Below, one piece after another: positions 9,097-61,706 of a DNA stretch of 64,000 nt (positions are counted from its first letter, which is position 1; each line of letters begins with the position of its first letter). Where the stretch lies: assembly GCA_963727825.1 (NCBI GenBank), contig CAVSHO010000008.1, positions 1-64,000 on the forward strand, written 5' to 3'. Source of the DNA: Ignavibacteriota bacterium. Lineage in GTDB: Bacteria > Bacteroidota > Ignavibacteria > UBA10030. The notes under the pieces were generated by a model. That model was not told the origin of the DNA. It was given only the letters and a program-made list of their open reading frames with translations, and searched no databases. Made by a program: the position numbers and the translations under genes.

Positions 9097-10781
9097 ATGA
9101 TTCCAGCCATCGGATATATTCGCTGTTCAACAGAAATGCAGGAAGATAGTCCTGATCAGCAAAAGACCGAAATATTGAACTTCAGTGCCAAGAATGGATA
9201 TGATGTAAAAGCTTGGTTCGTTGATTTCGGAAAAAGCGGGACAACATTTGATCAACGACCCGAATTCCAGAGGATGAAGAAAATTGTTGAAAACAAACCA
9301 AACTTTAAAGCTGTCATCTGTTATGATGAAAGTCGCTGGGGAAGGGCTATCGATGCAGAGGAAAACACTTTTTGGCGTGTTTACTTTCGTAAGTTTAAAG
9401 TCGATGTAGTCTTAGTAAAAACATCCATCGATCCGAAACATGAATATGCGCCAATGCTCAAGGCATTTGAAGGGGTGCAAGCTTCACAATACAGCAAGAA
9501 GTTATCTGAACTAACTCTTCGTGGAGCACTGAACAATGGCATTTATTCAAATGGTGGTTTTCCACCATTGGGCTATAAGCGAGTTGCAATCAATTTGAAA
9601 ACTGGTGTAGATCGTGAGCTGCGAGATGGTGAATGGTCAATCCCCAATCAGGAAAAAGTAATATGGTCTTGGGAGAAAAAAGCGAGGTGAAAACAGTAGT
9701 TACAATTTTCGAACAACGAGCAGTGGGTCAATCGTACTATACAATTGCACAAACATTAAATATGAAAGGGATACCCTCTATTAAACGAGGAAGATGGAAG
9801 AGCAGGGATGAAAAATGGAGCAAATGTTCAGTAAGATATATTCTTGATAACAGAGCTTATCTTGGTGAGCGTATCTATAATAAAAATTCGATGAGCAAAA
9901 TCATCGCATCTCAAAAGGGAGTAGATCTTAGGCTTGAATCAGTTTTTCCACACTGGAAGAAAAATTCTAAAGAATGGATCGTGACAAAGAATGCACACCC
10001 AGCAATTATTTCGGAAGAATTATGGGAGAAAACGCAACTGCTTCGACAAATACGAGCGCCTTATCATCCTCGATGGGATTCTCACAAAACTGAATATCTC
10101 TTATCAGGTATGCTTATTTGTTCGGCATGTGGATATCCGTTCCAAGGTTGGTCGGCCGCGAAAAAGAATCATCGATATTTCCGATATATGGATGGAGGTT
10201 TCAAGAATAAAGGAATTTGCTCGAAGTTGGTTCTTAAAAGAGATAAGTTGGAAAAGTTTGCTGTAGAAAAAATAAAAGAAGTTATGACGCATCCTAATCA
10301 TCTAGAGCGGATTGAAAAATACCTTGATCTCATGTTTAAGAAAGAGCCTCAGGTTGAACGGTCAGAACGTAGAGATCAGAAGAGGCAGCTCGATGAATTA
10401 AAAATGAAGATTCAAAATATTGTTGAAGCCATCGAGTCCAGGTCTAACGGTGTCAAGCTTGACACATTAATGAAACGCCTTGAGGATCTTGAAGACAAAG
10501 AAAGGGAACTCATGGAACAGTTGAATGCGAAAAAACAGAATGCGAATAGTGTTCAGGAAGTTCAAATTGTCAAAGATGCTGTATATTCGTTTATCCAGAA
10601 TTTCGAAAAGTATTTCGATACGGCTTCTTTATATGATAAGAAGCTTGTTTTTCAGAAGTGTATTAAGACTATTACAATAGATAGGAAAACGGAGATGGTC
10701 CGCTTCTATTTTCAACCGGTTCCCGCAGCAATCCCTCAAATTGGCGAAATGATGAAAAAAAACAGTCTTCGGCTGTTGTGA
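9097..10781 (+). CDS. Large serine recombinase (integrase), split by one frameshift near 9680
   Basis: YIRCST catalytic Ser motif, D.GKSG, RPEFQRM, SRWGR; recombinase domain; HPAIISEELW; YLLSGMLICSACG zinc ribbon; coiled coil. Confidence 0.9.
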
Positions 10782-10791
10782 GTAGAACGAG

Positions 10792-10865
10792 TAGCGGGGG
10801 GGGGATTCGAACCCTCGACCTGCGGATTATGATTCCGACGCTCTAACCAGCTGAGCTACCCCGCC
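10792..10865 (-). tRNA. tRNA-Met (CAT), elongator type
   Basis: GGCGGGGTAGCTCAGCTGGTTAGAGCG-TCGGAATCATAATCCG-CAGGTC-GAGGGTTCGAATCCCCC-CCCCGCTA cloverleaf. Confidence 0.93.
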
Positions 10866-10897
10866 AATTCAAGACTTTGCCCAGATCAACCTGCAAG

Positions 10898-11086
10898 GCG
10901 ATAGTCTCGCCACTTTATGGCGGACTGAGCTACCCCGCCAACTATGACATCACTCAAGTAAATTGGAATAGCGATAGTCTCGTCGCTTTATGGCGGACTG
11001 AGCTACCCCGCCAACTATGACATCACTCAAGTAAATTGGAATAGCGATAGTCTCGCCGCTTTTTGGCGGACTGAGCTACCCCGCCA
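10898..11086 (-). repeat. Three 43-bp repeats with 73-bp period, each containing the tRNA-Met 5' end
   Basis: Copies at 10898-10940, 10971-11013 and 11044-11086; each contains ctgagctaccccgcca, identical to 10851-10866. Confidence 0.95.
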
Positions 11087-11136
11087 TAAGAAAAAGATAG
11101 CGGGCAAGCTCGCCGAACATTTCTCCTATACTTTTC

Positions 11137-11165
11137 AATATAAAAAAAACCAGTTCTATCTGCAA
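11137..11165 (-). promoter_or_regulatory. sigma70 promoter for the repeat array and tRNA-Met
   Basis: TTGCAG-17 bp-TATATT on the minus strand. Confidence 0.6.
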
Positions 11166-57752: not shown

Positions 57753-57828
57753 ATCTCGTTCCCAACATCCCCGCCACAAAGAATGTCGGGCAAGCTGTTG
57801 GGAACGGAAGGAGTTGAAGCTCTGCTTC
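57753..57828. repeat. REP family A half (ctcgttccc...gggaacg + gaagctctgcttc) with nested palindrome
   Basis: Inverted near-identical copy (3 mismatches in 76 bp) at 61631-61706. Confidence 0.9.
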
Positions 57829-57844
57829 AGAACTAAGGATCAAA

Positions 57845-58464
57845 AGTTGTGAGGGAGATGCTCTCCCGAACTAAAACATTTTACTATTAAACCATGAGCC
57901 AATGGAAAATAATACTTGGTGTCAATTATTATTTTATCACAACTACTGTTGTTGAATGGCAGAGCGTGTTTGTTGCTATTCCATTGTTTGAAATAATCAT
58001 TGAAAGTCTGAAGTTTTGTCAAACTCATAAAGATTTACATCTACATGGCTATGTTATCATGCCCAATCATGCTCATTATATTGTTTCCACCAATCCGCCT
58101 GAGAAGTTATCTAATATTATGAGAGATTTCAATAGATTCACATCACAACAGATTACCGAAATCTTGGAAGAAATGCGAAGGTATGAATTACTGGAGGTTT
58201 TTCATCAAGCTGCGAAAGACGAACGCCGTAGCAATCGATATAAAGTGTGGCAAGATGGATTCCATCCCATCGCAATTGATACAGGAGATTTCTTTCAACA
58301 GAAGTTAGACTCCCTGCATGATAATCCTGTGCGCAAAGGATTTGTTGAAAAGCCATAACATTGGGTGTACTCGAGTATAAGGAATTATCTTTTAGATGAT
58401 CATTCGGTGATTACTATTGAATGTTTAGTGTGAGTGGTGTCGGGAGTATAACTCCCTCCCAACT
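57845..58464 (+). mobile_element. RAYT/Y1-transposase unit bounded by family-B hairpins
   Basis: Left end agttgtgagggagatgctctcccgaact (57845-57872); right end gtcgggagtataactccctcccaact (58439-58464); the same two ends recur joined at 59038-59136. Confidence 0.7.
57894..58433 (+). pseudogene. REP-associated tyrosine transposase (RAYT), inactivated
   Basis: YFITTT, YVIMPNHAH (HUH), VWQ.GFH, HDNPVRKG; catalytic Tyr position reads Ser (LDSLHDNP); in-frame TAA at 58356 before HWVYSS. Confidence 0.88.
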
Positions 58465-58608
58465 TGGAATTCGTATACCACGGTGTCTATCAATGTTCCA
58501 AGCAGAGCATAGGAACGAGAAATAAAAGATAACCGGTGCGAATCGCATTTCCCAGAACTCAGAAATCGGGACTATATAATCCTGCCGTTATTTAATATTG
58601 GTCGCTAA

Positions 58609-58640
58609 TAAAAAACCACCAAAAGAACGGTGGTTTTTTA
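58609..58640. terminator. Bidirectional intrinsic terminator
   Basis: taaaaaaccacc-aaaagaac-ggtggtttttta. Confidence 0.75.
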
Positions 58641-58665
58641 TCGTGAACTAGATATTTTATTCACT

Positions 58666-58995
58666 TTATATTTTTTCTACAACGACAGCTGTTCCGTATG
58701 CCAGTACTTCTGTAACTCCTGCGGCAATTTCAGTTGCGTCATATCGAAAAGCAAGCACAGCATTACCGCTAAGTTGTTCTGCATGTTGAATCATAAGCTC
58801 GTATGCATCACGGCGGGTTTGTTCGCATAGTTGAGAGTAGAGACTGATGTTGCCGCCAAAGAGAATCTGAAATCCAGCCCCGATGTTGCCGAAGAGCGAG
58901 CGCGATCTGACAATAATACCGCGTACCACGCCAAGGTTTTTTATAACGCGATATCCGTCAAGTTGGATATTCGTTGTAACGAGTTTGTGATCCAT
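58666..58995 (-). CDS. YbjQ/UPF0145 family protein
   Basis: LGVVRG..VRSR, GG.I..Y, EVLAYGTAV. Confidence 0.92.
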   Translation of the reverse strand: MDHKLVTTNIQLDGYRVIKNLGVVRGIIVRSRSLFGNIGAGFQILFGGNISLYSQLCEQTRRDAYELMIQHAEQLSGNAVLAFRYDATEIAAGVTEVLAYGTAVVVEKI

Positions 58996-59037
58996 ATTGT
59001 TATCCCTTCGTTAGATATTGAGAAGCTTCTGTGACCT

Positions 59038-59136
59038 AGCTGGAAGGGAGTTCCAACTCCCGACCTTTACCTGTTTTGCATTCCAGTTCGGGAGAACATT
59101 TACCCGCCATTGGTGTGGCGGGTCTCCCTCACAACT
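59038..59136 (-). repeat. Non-autonomous REPIN/MITE-like derivative of the family-B RAYT unit
   Basis: Reverse complement equals left end (with a 24-bp insert) + 20 bp + right end. Confidence 0.8.
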
Positions 59137-59216
59137 TGGGTAGTTAATGAAATTATAAAATTAGAGCCTCAGATTACAAATCTAATTTTGCTCCTGCAAT
59201 TTATAAACTCACAAAT

Positions 59217-60441
59217 TCATTTAACTAATTGTCTCACCGTTTCATAATATTGTTGAACCTGTCGTTGGTATTCTTCGCCTGTGCCGGGACCGTTGAAACC
59301 AACATGAATCTTTCTCACAACACCTTTCTTATCCACAAAGATTGTTGTCGGGTAGGCATAAAAGTTATTTAATTGAGAGCGCAGTCTCAGTTCAACGTTT
59401 ACATCGTTTGTACTTCCGCAGAATAGTACTGGATAAGTAATGCCATATCGTTTTTGGAAAAGCGTAAGATTCTTCTTTGCTACTTCTGAATTGTTACTAA
59501 TCTCAAACGCAAGTCCAACTACTTCCAATCCATCTTTTCCGAATTCAGAGTATATCTGTTCAAGAAACGGTGCGGCATCCATGCAGTTATGGCACCAAGT
59601 TCCCATAACATCGATTAAAAGCGCTTTGTCTTTGAATAAGTTATCCTTACTGCTCACAACTTTACCGGTCGATGTCATCATTCCATAAAATGAGTATGGC
59701 GCTTTCGGATTCTTCATCGTTGTTATGAATTCTGATTTTAATTCTGACGTTGGCTCCGATTGTGGAACGAGCCTAAATGCCATCGGTTTGCCGCTTCTTG
59801 CATACAAACTGCCATTCCAATTTGTGCCTTGTCGCTCCAGTTCCATAATAAATGCCTGCCATCCGGTGAAGCGAGTCAACGTCGCCTTGGAACCGACCTG
59901 TATGCCGGCAAGCAAACCATAGTCTCCGTCCGGCGCAATAAGTGTTCCGAAAACACTATCGTTCTTCATCCAAAAATTTGCTGTGGTAGCACTATCGATT
60001 CCATTTGCGTTTGAAATATATGCTTGATATTTGCCAACGAGCGGAAGTGAGATTGAAATTGCGGATGCATTGTTTTCTTTAACCATTTCCTTTTGTGTTG
60101 ACACAAATTCGTTCCAACTTGTATCTGCGCGATAGCGGAAGAACTTGCCGCGCCATTCCTTGCCATCCCAAATTCCGCACATTGCTGCACCGTATTCAGA
60201 AGAAGATAAACGAGAGCGAATCGCCATAGAATCGAATTTCAGGAATCGAAGTTTGTTCTGTGCCGTTCAAAAAGTAACCGGCAGGTGCAGCGGAATTCAA
60301 ATCAAGAAAAAGCCGGAAAGGAATCTGCTTATTCTCTCCGATCATGATGGCGCCGGTCCACATTCCTTTTTGTGGAATATTTTTTTGACATCCCAGGAGA
60401 ATGAAAATACATGCAATGAAAAGAAATCGTTTGGTATTCAT
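59217..60441 (-). CDS. TlpA-like disulfide reductase lipoprotein, one frameshift near 60197
   Basis: Lipobox LLGC; GTWCHNC; AYPTTIFVD; ORFs 60196-60618 and 59217-60227 join at SLSFIF/SEYG. Confidence 0.82.
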
Positions 60442-60505
60442 AATTAAATTAGCCGATGTTACGTAAAGCCGGCGTATATGCTTATAAACATGGAATGTAA
60501 AAGTA

Positions 60506-60590
60506 CACCACCCCTTAATCCCCTCCTCGTTTGAGGAGGGGAAATCCCGACACGATGCGAAATCGGGTCGGGAAGGGGAGGTGGACAACT
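60506..60590. repeat. REP-like element (cccctta atcccctcc...ggagggg) with a nested tcccgac...gtcggga insert
   Basis: Hairpins cccctcctc-gttt-gaggagggg and tcccgac...gtcggga. Confidence 0.6.
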
Positions 60591-60618
60591 TTAAAGAATA
60601 TGCGGTGCGTATTATCAT

Positions 60619-61122
60619 TTAAATAATTCCCGGATGTTTCCCGCCACCGGCTACCGACAAACATAGAATAATGATAATGAGAATGAATTGAACGAAATAA
60701 AAAGTCGTGATGCTTTTACTCAAGATTATGAAAGTACTCTCTACGTCTTCGATTGTTGTTTTCTCTGTGATGCCTTGCATTAATTTTGTTCGGCGGCGGA
60801 AAAGAATTGGACCAAAGACGGCTCCGTTTATCAATAGAAAGGCGAAGAGAATAATCTTTGCCATTAGCCAACCTTCGGTGTACCAGAGATTAATATTGCC
60901 TTCGTAAAGGTTAAAGATGTTCACGATGCCGGTAAGCAGCATAATGACGCAGGCGATAGGTGAAAGCAAGCTGAAGCGGCTGTTGATTTTTCCAACGTAA
61001 AGTTTTTGATTCCAATTCTTCTCAGTGCGGATTCTTCTCTCAATAATCCACCCACCAAGAAGTGCTGTGAAGACCAACCCGAAACCAATGAGGTGAAAAA
61101 TAAAATTAATAGAACCTCTCAT
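60619..61122 (-). CDS. Four-TM membrane protein (DUF2269/CopD-like)
   Basis: FHLIG, MLLTGI, WLMAKIILF. Confidence 0.7.
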   Translation of the reverse strand: MRGSINFIFHLIGFGLVFTALLGGWIIERRIRTEKNWNQKLYVGKINSRFSLLSPIACVIMLLTGIVNIFNLYEGNINLWYTEGWLMAKIILFAFLLINGAVFGPILFRRRTKLMQGITEKTTIEDVESTFIILSKSITTFYFVQFILIIIILCLSVAGGGKHPGII

Positions 61123-61235
61123 GCCGGCCTCCACGAAAAAACAATTTAAATGCTTGCAATTGTTAACCGCAAGATAAGAAAATGATTTGATAAAAAGGAA
61201 ATGCAACCAAGAAACCTTTTGTTAGAAGAATTATT

Positions 61236-61706
61236 CTCGCTCCCAAGCTCGCTTGCCCGCCATTTTTTGCCAAAGGCATCACTTCGTGATTGGTGGGGCT
61301 TGGGAGCGCTGATTGGAAGCTCCGGTTCCATAATATGAGAGGTATTTAATGCAACAATGTATTTCTTAGGTCTGTCATCAGTAAACTCCTTCAGTTCCCA
61401 AACTCAGTTTGGGAATGAAGTATTTCGGGGAAAACCGATTCGAAAGCAAGAACCACCCGAAGAAAACTATTTACGTATCCAACTTTAGAACCTTCCGAAG
61501 GTCTCAGCGGATCTAGTTTGACCTTCGGAAGGTAACCTTGTATTCCTCGTTCCCGAGCTCCTTTATCCGCCATTTGGTGGGCGGGGCTTGGGAACGCCAC
61601 TTCTGAAAGCTCCGCTTTCTTCCTTGTTACGAAGCAGAGCTTCAACCACTTCCGTTCCCAACAACTTGCCCGACATTCTTTGTGGCGGGGATGTTGGGAA
61701 CGAGAT
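61236..61706. repeat. Cluster of family-A REP hairpins, several with nested inserts
   Basis: ctcgctcccaagc[...]gcttgggagcg; gttcccaaactcagtttgggaat; ctcgttcccgagc[tccgccatttggtgggcgg]gcttgggaacg; inverted copy of 57753-57828. Confidence 0.8.

Follow-up and report, generated by a model that had tools for sequence, protein, structure and literature searches.

Repeats that include part of a tRNA gene are known from several settings. At the E. coli tyrT locus, tRNA-linked repeats lie in tandem downstream of the gene and repeat the tRNA 3′ end, and to our knowledge no hairpin element or nuclease is associated with them. Short GC-rich palindromes of the REP/REPIN type multiply alongside dedicated HUH/Y1 genes (RAYTs); we know of no REPs that split tRNA genes or bring restored gene copies. 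Following Williams in 2002, tRNA fragments at att sites are said to come from integrating elements. Such fragments are 3′ parts, with kilobases of integrase-bearing element between fragment and gene, in a later account (PMC9897764). SegB of phages T4 and T6 is a free-standing GIY-YIG nuclease that causes a segment with a tRNA gene to be amplified in tandem, the joints of the tRNA-containing unit showing microhomology; it is a phage gene, and the available text describes no split tRNA genes, restored partial duplicates or hairpin tags (PMC13096335). The Ssn proteins are single-domain GIY-YIG ssDNA nucleases with NTS/SRM hairpin repeats, which have a TCCCGCG-type core with GTCAT upstream and ATC downstream and are present in many copies per genome (Chenal et al. 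2025, PMC11893778). The word ‘tRNA’ occurs 0 times in the available text of that paper.

Here we analyse a repeat array beside a tRNA-Met gene of an Ignavibacteriota bacterium, in a 64,000-nt stretch of DNA that we call the window (assembly GCA_963727825.1, contig CAVSHO010000008.1, positions 1–64,000). Like the tyrT repeats, the array is tandem, adjoins a tRNA gene and includes a short tRNA piece. It shares with att-site fragments a partial tRNA copy beside an intact tRNA gene (PMC9897764), but its copies are 15-nt 5′ parts that follow one another every 73 nt, and a hairpin occupies the break. The likeness to SegB lies in small GIY-YIG genes adjoining tRNA genes and in selfish behaviour (PMC13096335); by contrast, no nuclease gene is part of the window array, and as the amplified tRNA piece is just 15 nt long, no extra tRNA is gained. 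Unlike the Ssn-associated NTS, the window hairpin (TCCGCC...GGCGAGA) has neither the TCCCG core nor the GTCAT flank.

Results

A repeat array upstream of tRNA-Met

The intact tRNA-Met of the window (Table 1) has an identical or near-identical counterpart in 20 relatives and is the functional gene from which the units are copied. Three head-to-tail units (11086–10867) lie upstream of it (10865–10791) on the minus strand, confirming the array of three units of 73, 73 and 74 bp that an earlier note on this DNA had described. Each consists of TGGCGGGGTAGCTCAG (T plus tRNA nt 1–15), the 27-nt segment TCCGCCAWAAAGYGRCGAGACTATCGC and a 30- or 31-nt spacer, without an ORF in its 73 nt, and TRF recovers the array at period 73 (2.6 copies, 96% matches, score 357). 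Within the 3.12-Mb genome the 16-mer TGGCGGGGTAGCTCAG has four matches at up to 1 mismatch and the 27-mer TCCGCCAWAAAGYGRCGAGACTATCGC has three at up to 3 mismatches, all at the tRNA-Met locus; the reversed control patterns of both give 0 matches in the same 3.12 Mb, which places the array far beyond chance.

Table 1 Features of the tRNA-Met locus in the window
Feature	Position	Strand	Details
Large serine recombinase gene, two overlapping ORFs	9097..10781	+	Pfam
Recombinase ORF with Resolvase domain	9097–9690	+	Pfam
Recombinase ORF with Recombinase domain and zinc ribbon	9633–10781	+	Pfam
Intact tRNA-Met, anticodon CAT, elongator-like	10791..10865	−	ARAGORN; Rfam tRNA model 63.4 bits
Unit 3, 74 nt	10867..10940	−	T + tRNA nt 1–15 (10940–10925)
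Unit 3 spacer B	10897–10867	−	
Unit 3 hairpin segment	10924–10898	−	
Unit 2, 73 nt	10941..11013	−	T + tRNA nt 1–15 (11013–10998)
Unit 2 spacer A	10970–10941	−	
Unit 2 hairpin segment, one stem-breaking G>A	10997–10971	−	
Unit 1, 73 nt	11014..11086	−	T + tRNA nt 1–15 (11086–11071)
Unit 1 spacer A	11043–11014	−	
Unit 1 hairpin segment	11070–11044	−	TCCGCC-AAAAAGC-GGCG(A)GA + CTATCGC
Leader hairpin GGCGAGCTTGCCCGC then T-run	11091..11114	−	
TTGCAG-N17-TATATT motif, candidate promoter of the tRNA transcript	11137..11165	−	Read by eye

The break in the tRNA copies lies within the D-loop, as the earlier note had it, and falls after nt 15 (GCTCAG^CTGG), with a hairpin element at the junction, and a tRNA-Met copy in genome G042 carries a full double hairpin at the identical junction. 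Two features of a hairpin-tagged partial tRNA duplication are present, a same-strand 5′ copy upstream (nt 1–15, three times) and a palindrome at the loop break (TCCGCC-N7-GGCG(A)GA after nt 15); a GIY-YIG ORF between fragment and intact tRNA-Met is absent from the 73-nt units. A tblastn search with nine GIY-YIG proteins of this genome (E ≤ 1; one noise match, E = 0.28) found no GIY-YIG gene or remnant, either at this locus or in the relatives’ tRNA-Met loci of 3 kb. Having neither ORF nor nuclease remnant, the units are therefore filed as a nuclease-less relic or non-autonomous unit, and any nuclease link at tRNA-Met is an analogy drawn from other tRNAs.

Units 1 and 2 are identical at 71 of 73 positions, and the sole stem change, a G>A in unit 2, is uncompensated. 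Unit 3 matches unit 1 at 55 of 74 positions (hairpin segment 25/27, spacer 14/31), and its divergence from units 1 and 2 equals that of the units of other species. Its tRNA-proximal spacer had been called unrelated; however, every window unit can be aligned from end to end with the single units found in G007 and G008, and spacers A and B are connected through intermediates at 19/31, 22/31 and 19/31. The two spacers are, on these alignments, diverged homologues. Leaving out the pair of units 1 and 2, conservation between units is 22–26 of 27 in the hairpin segment and 14–22 of 31 in the spacer, and the stem is conserved across the aligned units whereas the loop varies. RNA folds return UCCGCC...GGCG(A)GA as the stable element, in place of the GGCGG:CCGCC pairing proposed before.

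Upstream of the array, the leader hairpin and its T-run stand at −249 in the window and at −29 in G013, where the hairpin adjoins the tRNA directly; hairpins resembling GGCGAGCTTGCCCGC are also found in G005, G001 and G009. The promoter of the earlier note fared less evenly: its TTGCAG...TTTTTATAT motif is seen by eye in 12 of 14 genus loci, but an over-strict regular expression recovers it in 3 of 14 and a sigma-70 scan of the tRNA strand yields no promoter call. On the other side, the serine recombinase gene converges on the tRNA-Met 3′ end, has weak CcrB/XisF-like NCBIfam matches below cut-off, and is a neighbour outside the array. Pfam matches among the 14 nearby ORFs comprise recombinase, TonB plug, NTPase, OEP, Por_Secre_tail, Lin1244_N and YdjM, with DNA_pol_B_palm below cut-off and five ORFs without a match.

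The comparison with a CRISPR array does not survive. Unique, unrelated spacers are wanting, as two are identical and the third is homologous in an array of only three units, and neither a Cas family among the 14 nearby ORFs nor a CRISPR repeat RNA family in Rfam was detected. Run at permissive thresholds on the window locus and eight related loci, Rfam places only the tRNA model above its gathering score; matches far below gathering (Plastid-ycf2, psbl-rps4, GlsR10) fall on or adjoin the tRNA, none in the repeats.

Units in related genomes

Beyond this genome, the unit is seen in three other genomes and three metagenome contigs. Comparing copy number, as the earlier note had advised, reveals 0, 1, 2 or 3 units among relatives. 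Among 86 genomes of the family and 277 of the order, unit and junction occur in 5 and 4, respectively, always at the tRNA-Met locus and never elsewhere, and the 27-nt segment, once suspected of being a dispersed element, is confined to a single locus in every genome searched. Units are missing in G013, in G011 and in most of the genus; in G013 the leader hairpin is joined straight to the tRNA. One metagenome contig joins position 10850 to 10998, leaving one unit. Contig L102 likewise has one unit, and contig L101 has two non-adjacent units whose 27-nt segments equal that of window unit 2 except for its single G>A stem change.

The hairpin segment is conserved in at least five lineages, and hairpin-split 5′ copies of tRNA-Met lie upstream of tRNA-Met in several genera. 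In these copies the 3′ side of the T-stem and the 3′ acceptor strand are missing, and because of this we reject a reading as intron-bearing or split tRNA genes. Genome G082 has a match with 1 mismatch in a short locus where no full tRNA was detected. A further sequence in relatives, AGCCGGAGGCCTG after tRNA-Met nt 1–41, was considered as the mark of an integrated element and set aside; it occurs once per genome, only at the tRNA-Met locus (6 of 86 genomes).

Genome-wide tRNA fragments, hairpins and small nucleases

The array belongs to a pattern of tRNA self-fragments that runs through the whole genome. Counting same-strand 10-mers within 800 nt and outside other tRNA genes, 21 of 45 tRNA genes have pieces of themselves nearby, compared with 4 of 45 in a backwards control. 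Throughout the genome 5′ pieces lie upstream and 3′ pieces downstream of the tRNA, and the fragments are split by GC-rich hairpins in D, anticodon and T loops. Gene-less units accompany Asn, Arg-tct, Gln, fMet and the C12 CAT tRNA, those of Asn (2 × 123 nt) and the C12 CAT tRNA (2 units) being tandem as well; at Leu-cag a tandem 2 × 346-nt repeat includes a nuclease gene.

Hairpins of the TCCCG...CGGGA type are enriched in the genome (123, versus 7–49 for ten control feet) and near tRNAs (18 within 700 nt, versus 2.6 expected). They match the Ssn NTS core TTCCCGCG...CGCGGGAA (PMC11893778), and one hairpin copy, at C14:46556, fits the NTS consensus letter for letter. The unit hairpin has other feet, TCCG...CG(A)GA, which equal the left half of the double hairpin in tRNA-Ser, tRNA-Asn and G042 tRNA-Met fragments. 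Full double hairpins (TCCG-X-CGAGA.TCTCG-Y-CGGA) lie inside tRNA fragments in 4 of 4 cases, inserted at G^CTG, and TCCG...CG(A)GA hairpins are found near tRNAs (12/86, versus 0–1 for six control foot pairs). In this genome a near-identical hairpin occupies the same D-loop position of another tRNA-like fragment (C11:148476), and the D-loop junction recurs in two tRNA backbones and two genera. Classification of the array itself as an NTS/SRM repeat was rejected on its TCCGCC/GGCGAGA arms, its GCTCAG upstream flank and its three copies at one locus.

Small nuclease genes accompany these fragments. Twelve of the 14 GIY-YIG matches over cut-off in the genome are small genes, among them those at C9:167024, C7:94606 and C7:171193, and 10 of the 12 lie at most 424 nt from a same-strand tRNA; two that are remote from tRNAs are flanked by TCCCG...CGGGA-type repeats. 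Pfam confirms GIY-YIG domain ORFs (E = 1e-17 and 3e-15), the best solved relatives of the proteins are the UPF0213 proteins 1ywl and 1zg2, and the only NCBIfam match of the nuclease, to a group I intron endonuclease, is below cut-off. In length (about 80–95 aa) and in flanking 20–50-nt hairpin repeats they resemble the Ssn proteins (PMC11893778). Longer versions carrying a nuclease ORF, for which the earlier note had suggested a search, do exist with GIY-YIG genes, but at other tRNAs. Fragments of tRNA genes occur together with hairpins and small GIY-YIG genes in other phyla as well: among 54 public loci with relatives of one single nuclease protein used as query, 37 have a same-strand tRNA within 400 nt, and 28 of these 37 carry fragments of the adjacent tRNA beyond the nuclease gene with the polarity that the model predicts, the fragments being split by palindromes.

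The genome also has nine Y1 transposase genes, each with its own flanking hairpin type, and 0 of 9 lie within 5 kb of a tRNA. With no Y1 gene near a tRNA and a 27-nt segment restricted to a single locus, the array differs from REP/REPIN sequences with their RAYTs, and that class was rejected. However, one Y1 element in the window is bracketed by hairpins with TCCGTTCC...GGAACGAGA feet, as in the tRNA-Ser double hairpins and much as in the unit hairpin, and a Y1 enzyme is therefore also a candidate mobiliser.

Discussion

We think it fairly probable that all three units are what remains, without coding capacity or nuclease gene, of hairpin-tagged partial tRNA duplications like those around the tRNA genes of this lineage. 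They resemble scars left by small selfish DNA elements of a kind that clusters at the tRNA genes of this bacterium. A unit would comprise the displaced tRNA-Met 5′ end (nt −1 to 15), half a hairpin and former leader, the hairpin being the left half of a GC-rich double-hairpin element at D-loop site G15^C16 and the spacer about 30 nt of the former tRNA-Met leader. From the nuclease-bearing loci at other tRNAs we infer, by analogy, that the gene-less unit descended from a nuclease/hairpin system or was made by one in trans. One unit would already have been in the common stock of G000, G007 and G008. Because the same 16-nt direct repeat brackets every unit, copy number would have been altered by unequal recombination or replication slippage, the presumed mechanism of amplification, and nuclease-induced breaks may stimulate such change. 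SegB is a published precedent for a GIY-YIG nuclease that amplifies part of a tRNA locus in tandem (PMC13096335). The outcome would be three tandem copies here and, after precise loss via the same repeats, an ‘empty’ site. A dedicated function of the array is improbable. With the likely promoter on one side and the tRNA on the other, it should be transcribed as leader, and the co-transcribed leader, array included, would presumably be removed by the RNase P cut at the tRNA 5′ end.

Some observations stand against this reading. The hairpin segment (22–26 of 27) is far better conserved than the spacer (14–22 of 31), which a purely neutral relic would not predict; the segment could be under constraint, as a structure or as the site of a protein, or units could have been re-created several times from one source. 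In addition, the window hairpin is a half element without the TCCCG core and the oriented flanks of NTS/SRM, and neither a GIY-YIG gene nor a remnant of one was detected at the locus.

Re-creation is what one would expect of an active non-autonomous mini-element, a possible but doubtful origin, close to the proposal of the earlier note, in which some 73 bp comprising a hairpin, a short spacer and a replacement 5′ end are repeatedly inserted into the tRNA-Met D-loop by a trans-acting nuclease, Ssn-like GIY-YIG or Y1/RAYT-type, each event pushing the old 5′ end upstream. The outlasting of spacer by hairpin segment, the shared D-loop junction in two tRNA backbones and two genera, and a tRNA-proximal unit 3 as diverged from units 1 and 2 as are the units of other species would all fit; upstream of the first unit stands a leader of the ancestral type, as insertion predicts, and the 12 small GIY-YIG and nine Y1 genes offer plentiful candidate enzymes. 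Yet unit and junction are restricted to tRNA-Met in 5/86 family and 4/277 order genomes, no donor copy or free form was detected in the genomes searched, and units 1 and 2 (71/73) are plain recent duplicates. The L101 units, too, were duplicated along with the following tRNA 5′ half, an arrangement that looks like segmental duplication. It is likewise only tentatively that we entertain the 73-bp unit as a self-contained, target-restoring mobile unit that enters the single-stranded D-loop at G^CTG and leaves a tandem record upstream. Replacement of the displaced 5′ end would let an essential single-copy tRNA gene survive, and the enzyme that moves the hairpin in trans would be either a GIY-YIG ssDNA nuclease resembling Ssn or one of the Y1 type; if so, about half of the tRNA genes of this genome would be under continuing attack by selfish DNA unpublished so far.

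The array could instead be a functional leader RNA, with repeats that are kept because the transcribed hairpin and decoy 5′ ends influence how pre-tRNA-Met folds, how RNase P processes it or how stable it is, or because small RNAs arise from them. We regard this as improbable. Co-transcription is likely from the position between likely promoter and tRNA, the stem is kept while the loop varies, and both the persistence of the hairpin segment in five or more lineages and the upstream hairpin-split tRNA-Met 5′ copies of several genera speak for a function. Against it, close species (G013, G011 and most of the genus) manage without units, copy number runs from 0 to 3, no compensating change accompanies the one altered stem position, and the fold z-scores of the units are weak (−2.3, −1.6 and −1.7), values that neither favour nor disfavour the relic reading. 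The one RNA contig maps to the recombinase gene only and leaves the array untouched. About half of the tRNAs share the architecture, including downstream 3′ fragments and nuclease genes, which suits selfish DNA better.

An assembly artefact, in which a locus with one unit or some other number was mis-collapsed or mis-expanded, is very unlikely. The assembly has 14 contigs with 6.55% estimated contamination, and no independent read or contig crosses the three units: none of the contigs from four sequencing runs (X1, X2, X3 and X15, each with at most 0.27 of the sampled words) covers 10874–10975, so that a copy number of three comes from the assembly. But the unit itself recurs in the three other genomes and three metagenome contigs, and the copies differ by point changes and by the distinct spacer B, as would not be expected from an error of collapse or expansion.

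Least credible of all are att remnants left by the neighbouring serine recombinase or another integrase, even with a large serine recombinase gene abutting the tRNA 3′ end, several tRNA-Met 3′ fragments elsewhere in G013 and the standing of tRNA genes as classic integration sites (PMC9897764), since the repeats are 15-nt 5′ ends 73 nt apart with no element between them, the recombinase is on the other side, and the two do not co-occur in relatives, G011 having the recombinase-side downstream flank of the window but no units and G007 and G008 the unit with a different downstream flank.

For nuclease-less relics of hairpin-tagged duplications, the preferred reading, we found no published description: the papers found concern fungal mitochondria and phages, and none of them deals with GIY-YIG/hairpin cassettes that split tRNA genes on bacterial chromosomes. 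We also know of no duplications of short 5′ ends like these made by serine recombinases. If the preferred reading is true, tRNA genes, in Bacteroidota/Ignavibacteria-like bacteria as well as in other phyla, would be hot spots for tiny nuclease-and-hairpin elements that break the tRNA gene in a loop and always leave a working copy alongside. Such elements would be a third source of prokaryotic tRNA gene fragments, which confuse tRNA annotation, besides integrating elements and CRISPR spacers; they would give Ssn ssDNA nucleases and hairpin repeats a concrete genomic target and would supply natural nuclease/hairpin pairs for tool development. The tRNA-Met array would then be what remains after loss of the nuclease gene, with hairpin-tagged gene ends expanding and contracting in a tRNA leader.

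The tRNA-Met array

Three head-to-tail units stand directly before the tRNA-Met(CAT) gene, numbered here from the most upstream (unit 1) to the tRNA-proximal one (unit 3), and their tandem arrangement is as the earlier note had described it. Each unit consists of TGGCGGGGTAGCTCAG (a T plus tRNA nucleotides 1–15), a 27-nt segment TCCGCCAWAAAGYGRCGAGACTATCGC and a spacer of 30 or 31 nt, and TRF returned a period of 73 with 96% matches and a score of 357. A search of the 3.12-Mb genome recovered the 16-mer four times and the 27-mer three times, all at the tRNA-Met locus, with 0 matches to reversed control patterns of either.

Located 5′ of unit 1 are a TTGCAG-N17-TATATT motif and a hairpin (GGCGAGCTTGCCCGC) with a T-run. 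The motif was not called by a sigma-70 scan; motifs of this type were seen by eye in 12 of 14 genus loci, and a regular expression that proved too strict matched in 3 of the 14. The hairpin, of the form GGCGGG-loop-CCCGCC, comes just after this candidate promoter, ahead of the tRNA-Met leader, has a stem similar to the tRNA acceptor stem and recurs at the equivalent place in six relatives (G013, G005, G001, G009, G011 and G019); it resembles a terminator or attenuator located where the tRNA transcript begins. A serine recombinase gene stops 10 nt short of the tRNA-Met 3′ end, within a flank common to G011, and may mark where an integrated element ends; the ORFs upstream of it (Lin1244_N, YdjM and a weak match to DNA polymerase beta palm) are not clearly phage genes.

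Features at the tRNA-Met locus and the Y1 element of the window
Feature	Coordinates	Strand	Remark
tRNA-Met(CAT)	10865-10791	minus	ARAGORN
Three head-to-tail units, 73, 73 and 74 nt	11086-10867	minus	immediately upstream of tRNA-Met(CAT)
Leader hairpin	11091-11114	minus	
Large serine recombinase, two overlapping ORFs	9097-10781	plus	Resolvase domain; Recombinase plus zinc ribbon
Y1 element	57753-61706		81-nt inverted repeat, 94% complementary, encloses about 3.95 kb
Y1 (IS200/RAYT-type) transposase gene	57894-58358		inside the 81-nt inverted repeat, with other ORFs

tRNA fragments and GIY-YIG genes across the genome

The array exemplifies a pattern seen throughout the genome. Scanning all 45 tRNA genes for exact own 10-mers on the same strand, at most 800 nt away and outside other tRNA genes, revealed own fragments near 21 of 45 genes, compared with 4 of 45 for a control in which the tRNAs were read backwards. 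Fragment polarity is regular, upstream pieces being 5′ and downstream pieces 3′; the pieces are collinear, and the hairpins between them fall in the D, anticodon or T loop. Units often occur in tandem (Leu-cag, 2 × 346 nt; Asn, 2 × 123 nt; two units each at the C12 CAT tRNA and downstream of Arg-cct and Gln).

Longer versions carrying an enzyme gene, as envisaged in the earlier note, exist at other tRNAs, where a short reading frame encoding a GIY-YIG domain (Pfam E-values of 1e-17 and 3e-15) often lies between fragment and intact tRNA, whereas the array units themselves lack a nuclease. An HMM search of the genome gave 14 GIY-YIG matches above cut-off, 12 of them small genes; for 10 of these 12 a same-strand tRNA is no more than 424 nt away, and for 9 no more than 190 nt. 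The two tRNA-distant genes form a second subfamily, with hairpins such as agtcatTCCCGCGTACGCGGGAatctta on their flanks.

Hairpin families

The genome has 123 hairpins of the form TCCCG...CGGGA whose stem is 6 or longer (ten control feet, 7–49); 18 have a tRNA within 700 nt, against 2.6 expected. Their core matches the NTS/SRM repeats of Ssn, a family of single-domain GIY-YIG ssDNA nucleases, and the copy at C14:46556 agrees in full with the published NTS consensus (PMC11893778). Clusters of two or three different hairpins of this form in fixed order, resembling REP/BIME mosaics, occur at C9:74375-74457, C9:49903-49953, C12:61790-61872, C8:109386-109468 and C1:104686-104737; some clustered hairpins fit the Neisseria NTS consensus, and the genome has two Ssn-like GIY-YIG genes flanked by such hairpins.

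Another type, a double hairpin with two-fold symmetry, reads TCCG-X-CG(A)GA and then TC(T)CG-Y-CGGA. All four full copies in the genome split tRNA fragments at G^CTG (Ser twice, Asn twice), those at tRNA-Ser share cassettes with two GIY-YIG genes, and a tRNA-Met copy in the relative G042 carries a double hairpin at GCTCAG^CTGG. The 27-nt segment of the window starts at this same junction and has the double-hairpin feet, including the bulged A (TCCGCC-N7-GGCG-A-GA); the 7 nt that follow (CTATCGC) look, by eye only, like the beginning of the right arm. The 27-mer is confined to the tRNA-Met locus; a near-identical hairpin (TCCCGCCAGAAAGCGGCGGGA) stands after GCTCAG in another tRNA-like 5′ fragment, at C11:148476. 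The region C11:148476-148600 holds two such fragments (GAGGTCGTAGCTCAG plus hairpin, then GAGGTCGAAGCTCAGCCTGGTTAGAGCGACTGCCTGTTACG); no intact tRNA was called in the surrounding 700 nt, and the region may be what such events, or an integrated element, left of a tRNA gene.

Of 86 hairpins with TCCG...CGAGA feet, 12 are close to tRNAs (six control foot pairs, 0–1), and 8 of the 10 well-formed copies are at tRNA loci. The other two are the arms of the 81-nt inverted repeat around the Y1 element; the repeat contains a long hairpin whose feet, TCCGTTCC...GGAACGAGA, equal those of the tRNA-Ser-fragment double hairpins. Because such hairpins also bracket this element, their mover could be a Y1 or a GIY-YIG enzyme; however, 0 of 9 Y1 genes in the genome lie within 5 kb of a tRNA, whereas double hairpins at tRNA-Ser share cassettes with GIY-YIG genes. 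A further hairpin, (T)CCGCC-AWAAGRTRARGCAY-GGCGG(A), has three settings: at C7:140377 and 141816, beside a Y1 gene (C7:141971); at C12:53453 (minus strand), in a hairpin-split copy upstream of the C12 CAT tRNA; and at loci L014, L018 and L027, within tRNA-Met pseudo-copies of three relatives. Its conserved loop suggests a putative specific recognition element.

Nuclease loci in other bacteria

A public scan with one small GIY-YIG protein of this genome as query, one genome per species, returned 54 loci in Bacteroidota (including Ignavibacteria), Patescibacteria, Verrucomicrobiota, Zixibacteria and others. A same-strand tRNA lies within 400 nt of the nuclease gene in 37 of them (18 upstream, 19 downstream); several of the 17 loci without one are very short or at contig ends. 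At 28 of the 37, pieces of the adjacent tRNA occur on the far side of the nuclease gene, beginning at nucleotide 1 when the tRNA is downstream or reaching the 3′ end when it is upstream. Short palindromes split the displaced fragments, and the 20-nt palindrome of the Leu-cag units is present in a Mucilaginibacter and a Giovannonibacteria locus. Judged by these closest nuclease relatives and by a T9SS sorting domain, the source organism is probably a Bacteroidota/Ignavibacteria-like bacterium.

In the literature searched we met no account of small GIY-YIG/hairpin cassettes that split chromosomal tRNA genes and leave restored copies. A survey explains tRNA fragments of prokaryotes by integrating elements and CRISPR and mentions neither hairpin nor endonuclease (PMC9897764). 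Hairpin repeats are described for Ssn nucleases, in an article that lacks the word tRNA (PMC11893778), and a nuclease near tRNAs for phage SegB (PMC13096335).

Origin and turnover of the units

We searched the DNA of 40 relatives and compared loci side by side. We found the window-type junction in 5 of 86 family genomes (at most one mismatch) and, with the hairpin required, in 4 of 277 order genomes, always at tRNA-Met; the array is found only in the source genome. Copy number, for which the earlier note had proposed a comparison, ranges from 0 to 3: G013 has the leader hairpin fused straight to the tRNA, G007 and G008 have one unit each in an upstream context unlike the one here, and metagenome loci L102 and L101 have one unit and two non-adjacent units, respectively. 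In L101 a tRNA-Met start follows each unit, the first being a 5′ half fused to AGCCGGAGGCCTG. One contig of sequencing run X2 joins 10850 to 10998, leaving one unit, and the middle of the array has no coverage in any read set, so that the three-copy state is known from the assembly alone.

Many other loci have bigger upstream copies of the tRNA-Met 5′ part. Nucleotides 1–41 followed by the conserved AGCCGGAGGCCTG segment occur in 6 of 86 family genomes, once per genome and always at this locus; in other copies, segments 1–15, 16–26, 27–41 and the T-arm 5′ side are near-exact with long GC-rich hairpins between them. G024 has a hairpin-split copy and G042 two units of about 360 nt. The nucleotide 1–41/AGCCGGAGGCCTG fusion stands upstream of tRNA-Met at L015, L022, L018, L011, L012, L016 and L101; after AGCCGGAGGCCTG comes a hairpin whose pairing is kept with differing sequences (ATCGACGAAGTCGAT / TCACGCAATGCGTGA), then TCAAATTTG.

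On the best reading, the units derive from the tRNA/hairpin/GIY-YIG system as relics that lack the nuclease or as non-autonomous units. Each would consist of a tRNA 5′ end that was displaced, one half of a hairpin element sitting where the D-loop is broken, and some sequence from the former leader. Because 16-nt direct repeats bracket them, units could be gained and lost whole, by unequal recombination or slippage; such events could also erase them precisely, so the 'empty' G013 site need not be ancestral. In phage, the GIY-YIG nuclease SegB has been shown to drive tandem amplification of a tRNA-gene segment (PMC13096335).

All five units (three here, one each in G007 and G008) align end to end. 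Units 1 and 2 are identical at 71 of 73 positions, units 3 and 1 at 55 of 74 (hairpin segment 25/27, spacer 14/31). The hairpin segment is thus clearly better conserved than the spacer, which speaks against a purely neutral relic, and unit 3 is either old or of separate origin. Both points leave some room for the earlier proposal of repeated insertion, with a trans-acting enzyme as its agent, which we nevertheless consider unlikely. Hairpin conservation would also fit a role of the units in the leader RNA, an even less probable reading. Integration scars are rejected on anatomy, and the neighbouring recombinase and the units do not co-occur in relatives. The CRISPR analogy likewise fails: the tRNA-proximal spacer B, thought unrelated to spacer A of units 1 and 2, is linked to it through the G007 and G008 spacers (19/31, 22/31 and 19/31) and is therefore a diverged relative rather than foreign DNA.

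Returning to units derived from the tRNA/hairpin/GIY-YIG system, we argue that the array probably has no dedicated function, because most close relatives lack units and copy number varies, a stem change in unit 2 is uncompensated, fold z-scores are weak (−2.3, −1.6 and −1.7) and half of all tRNAs share the same architecture.
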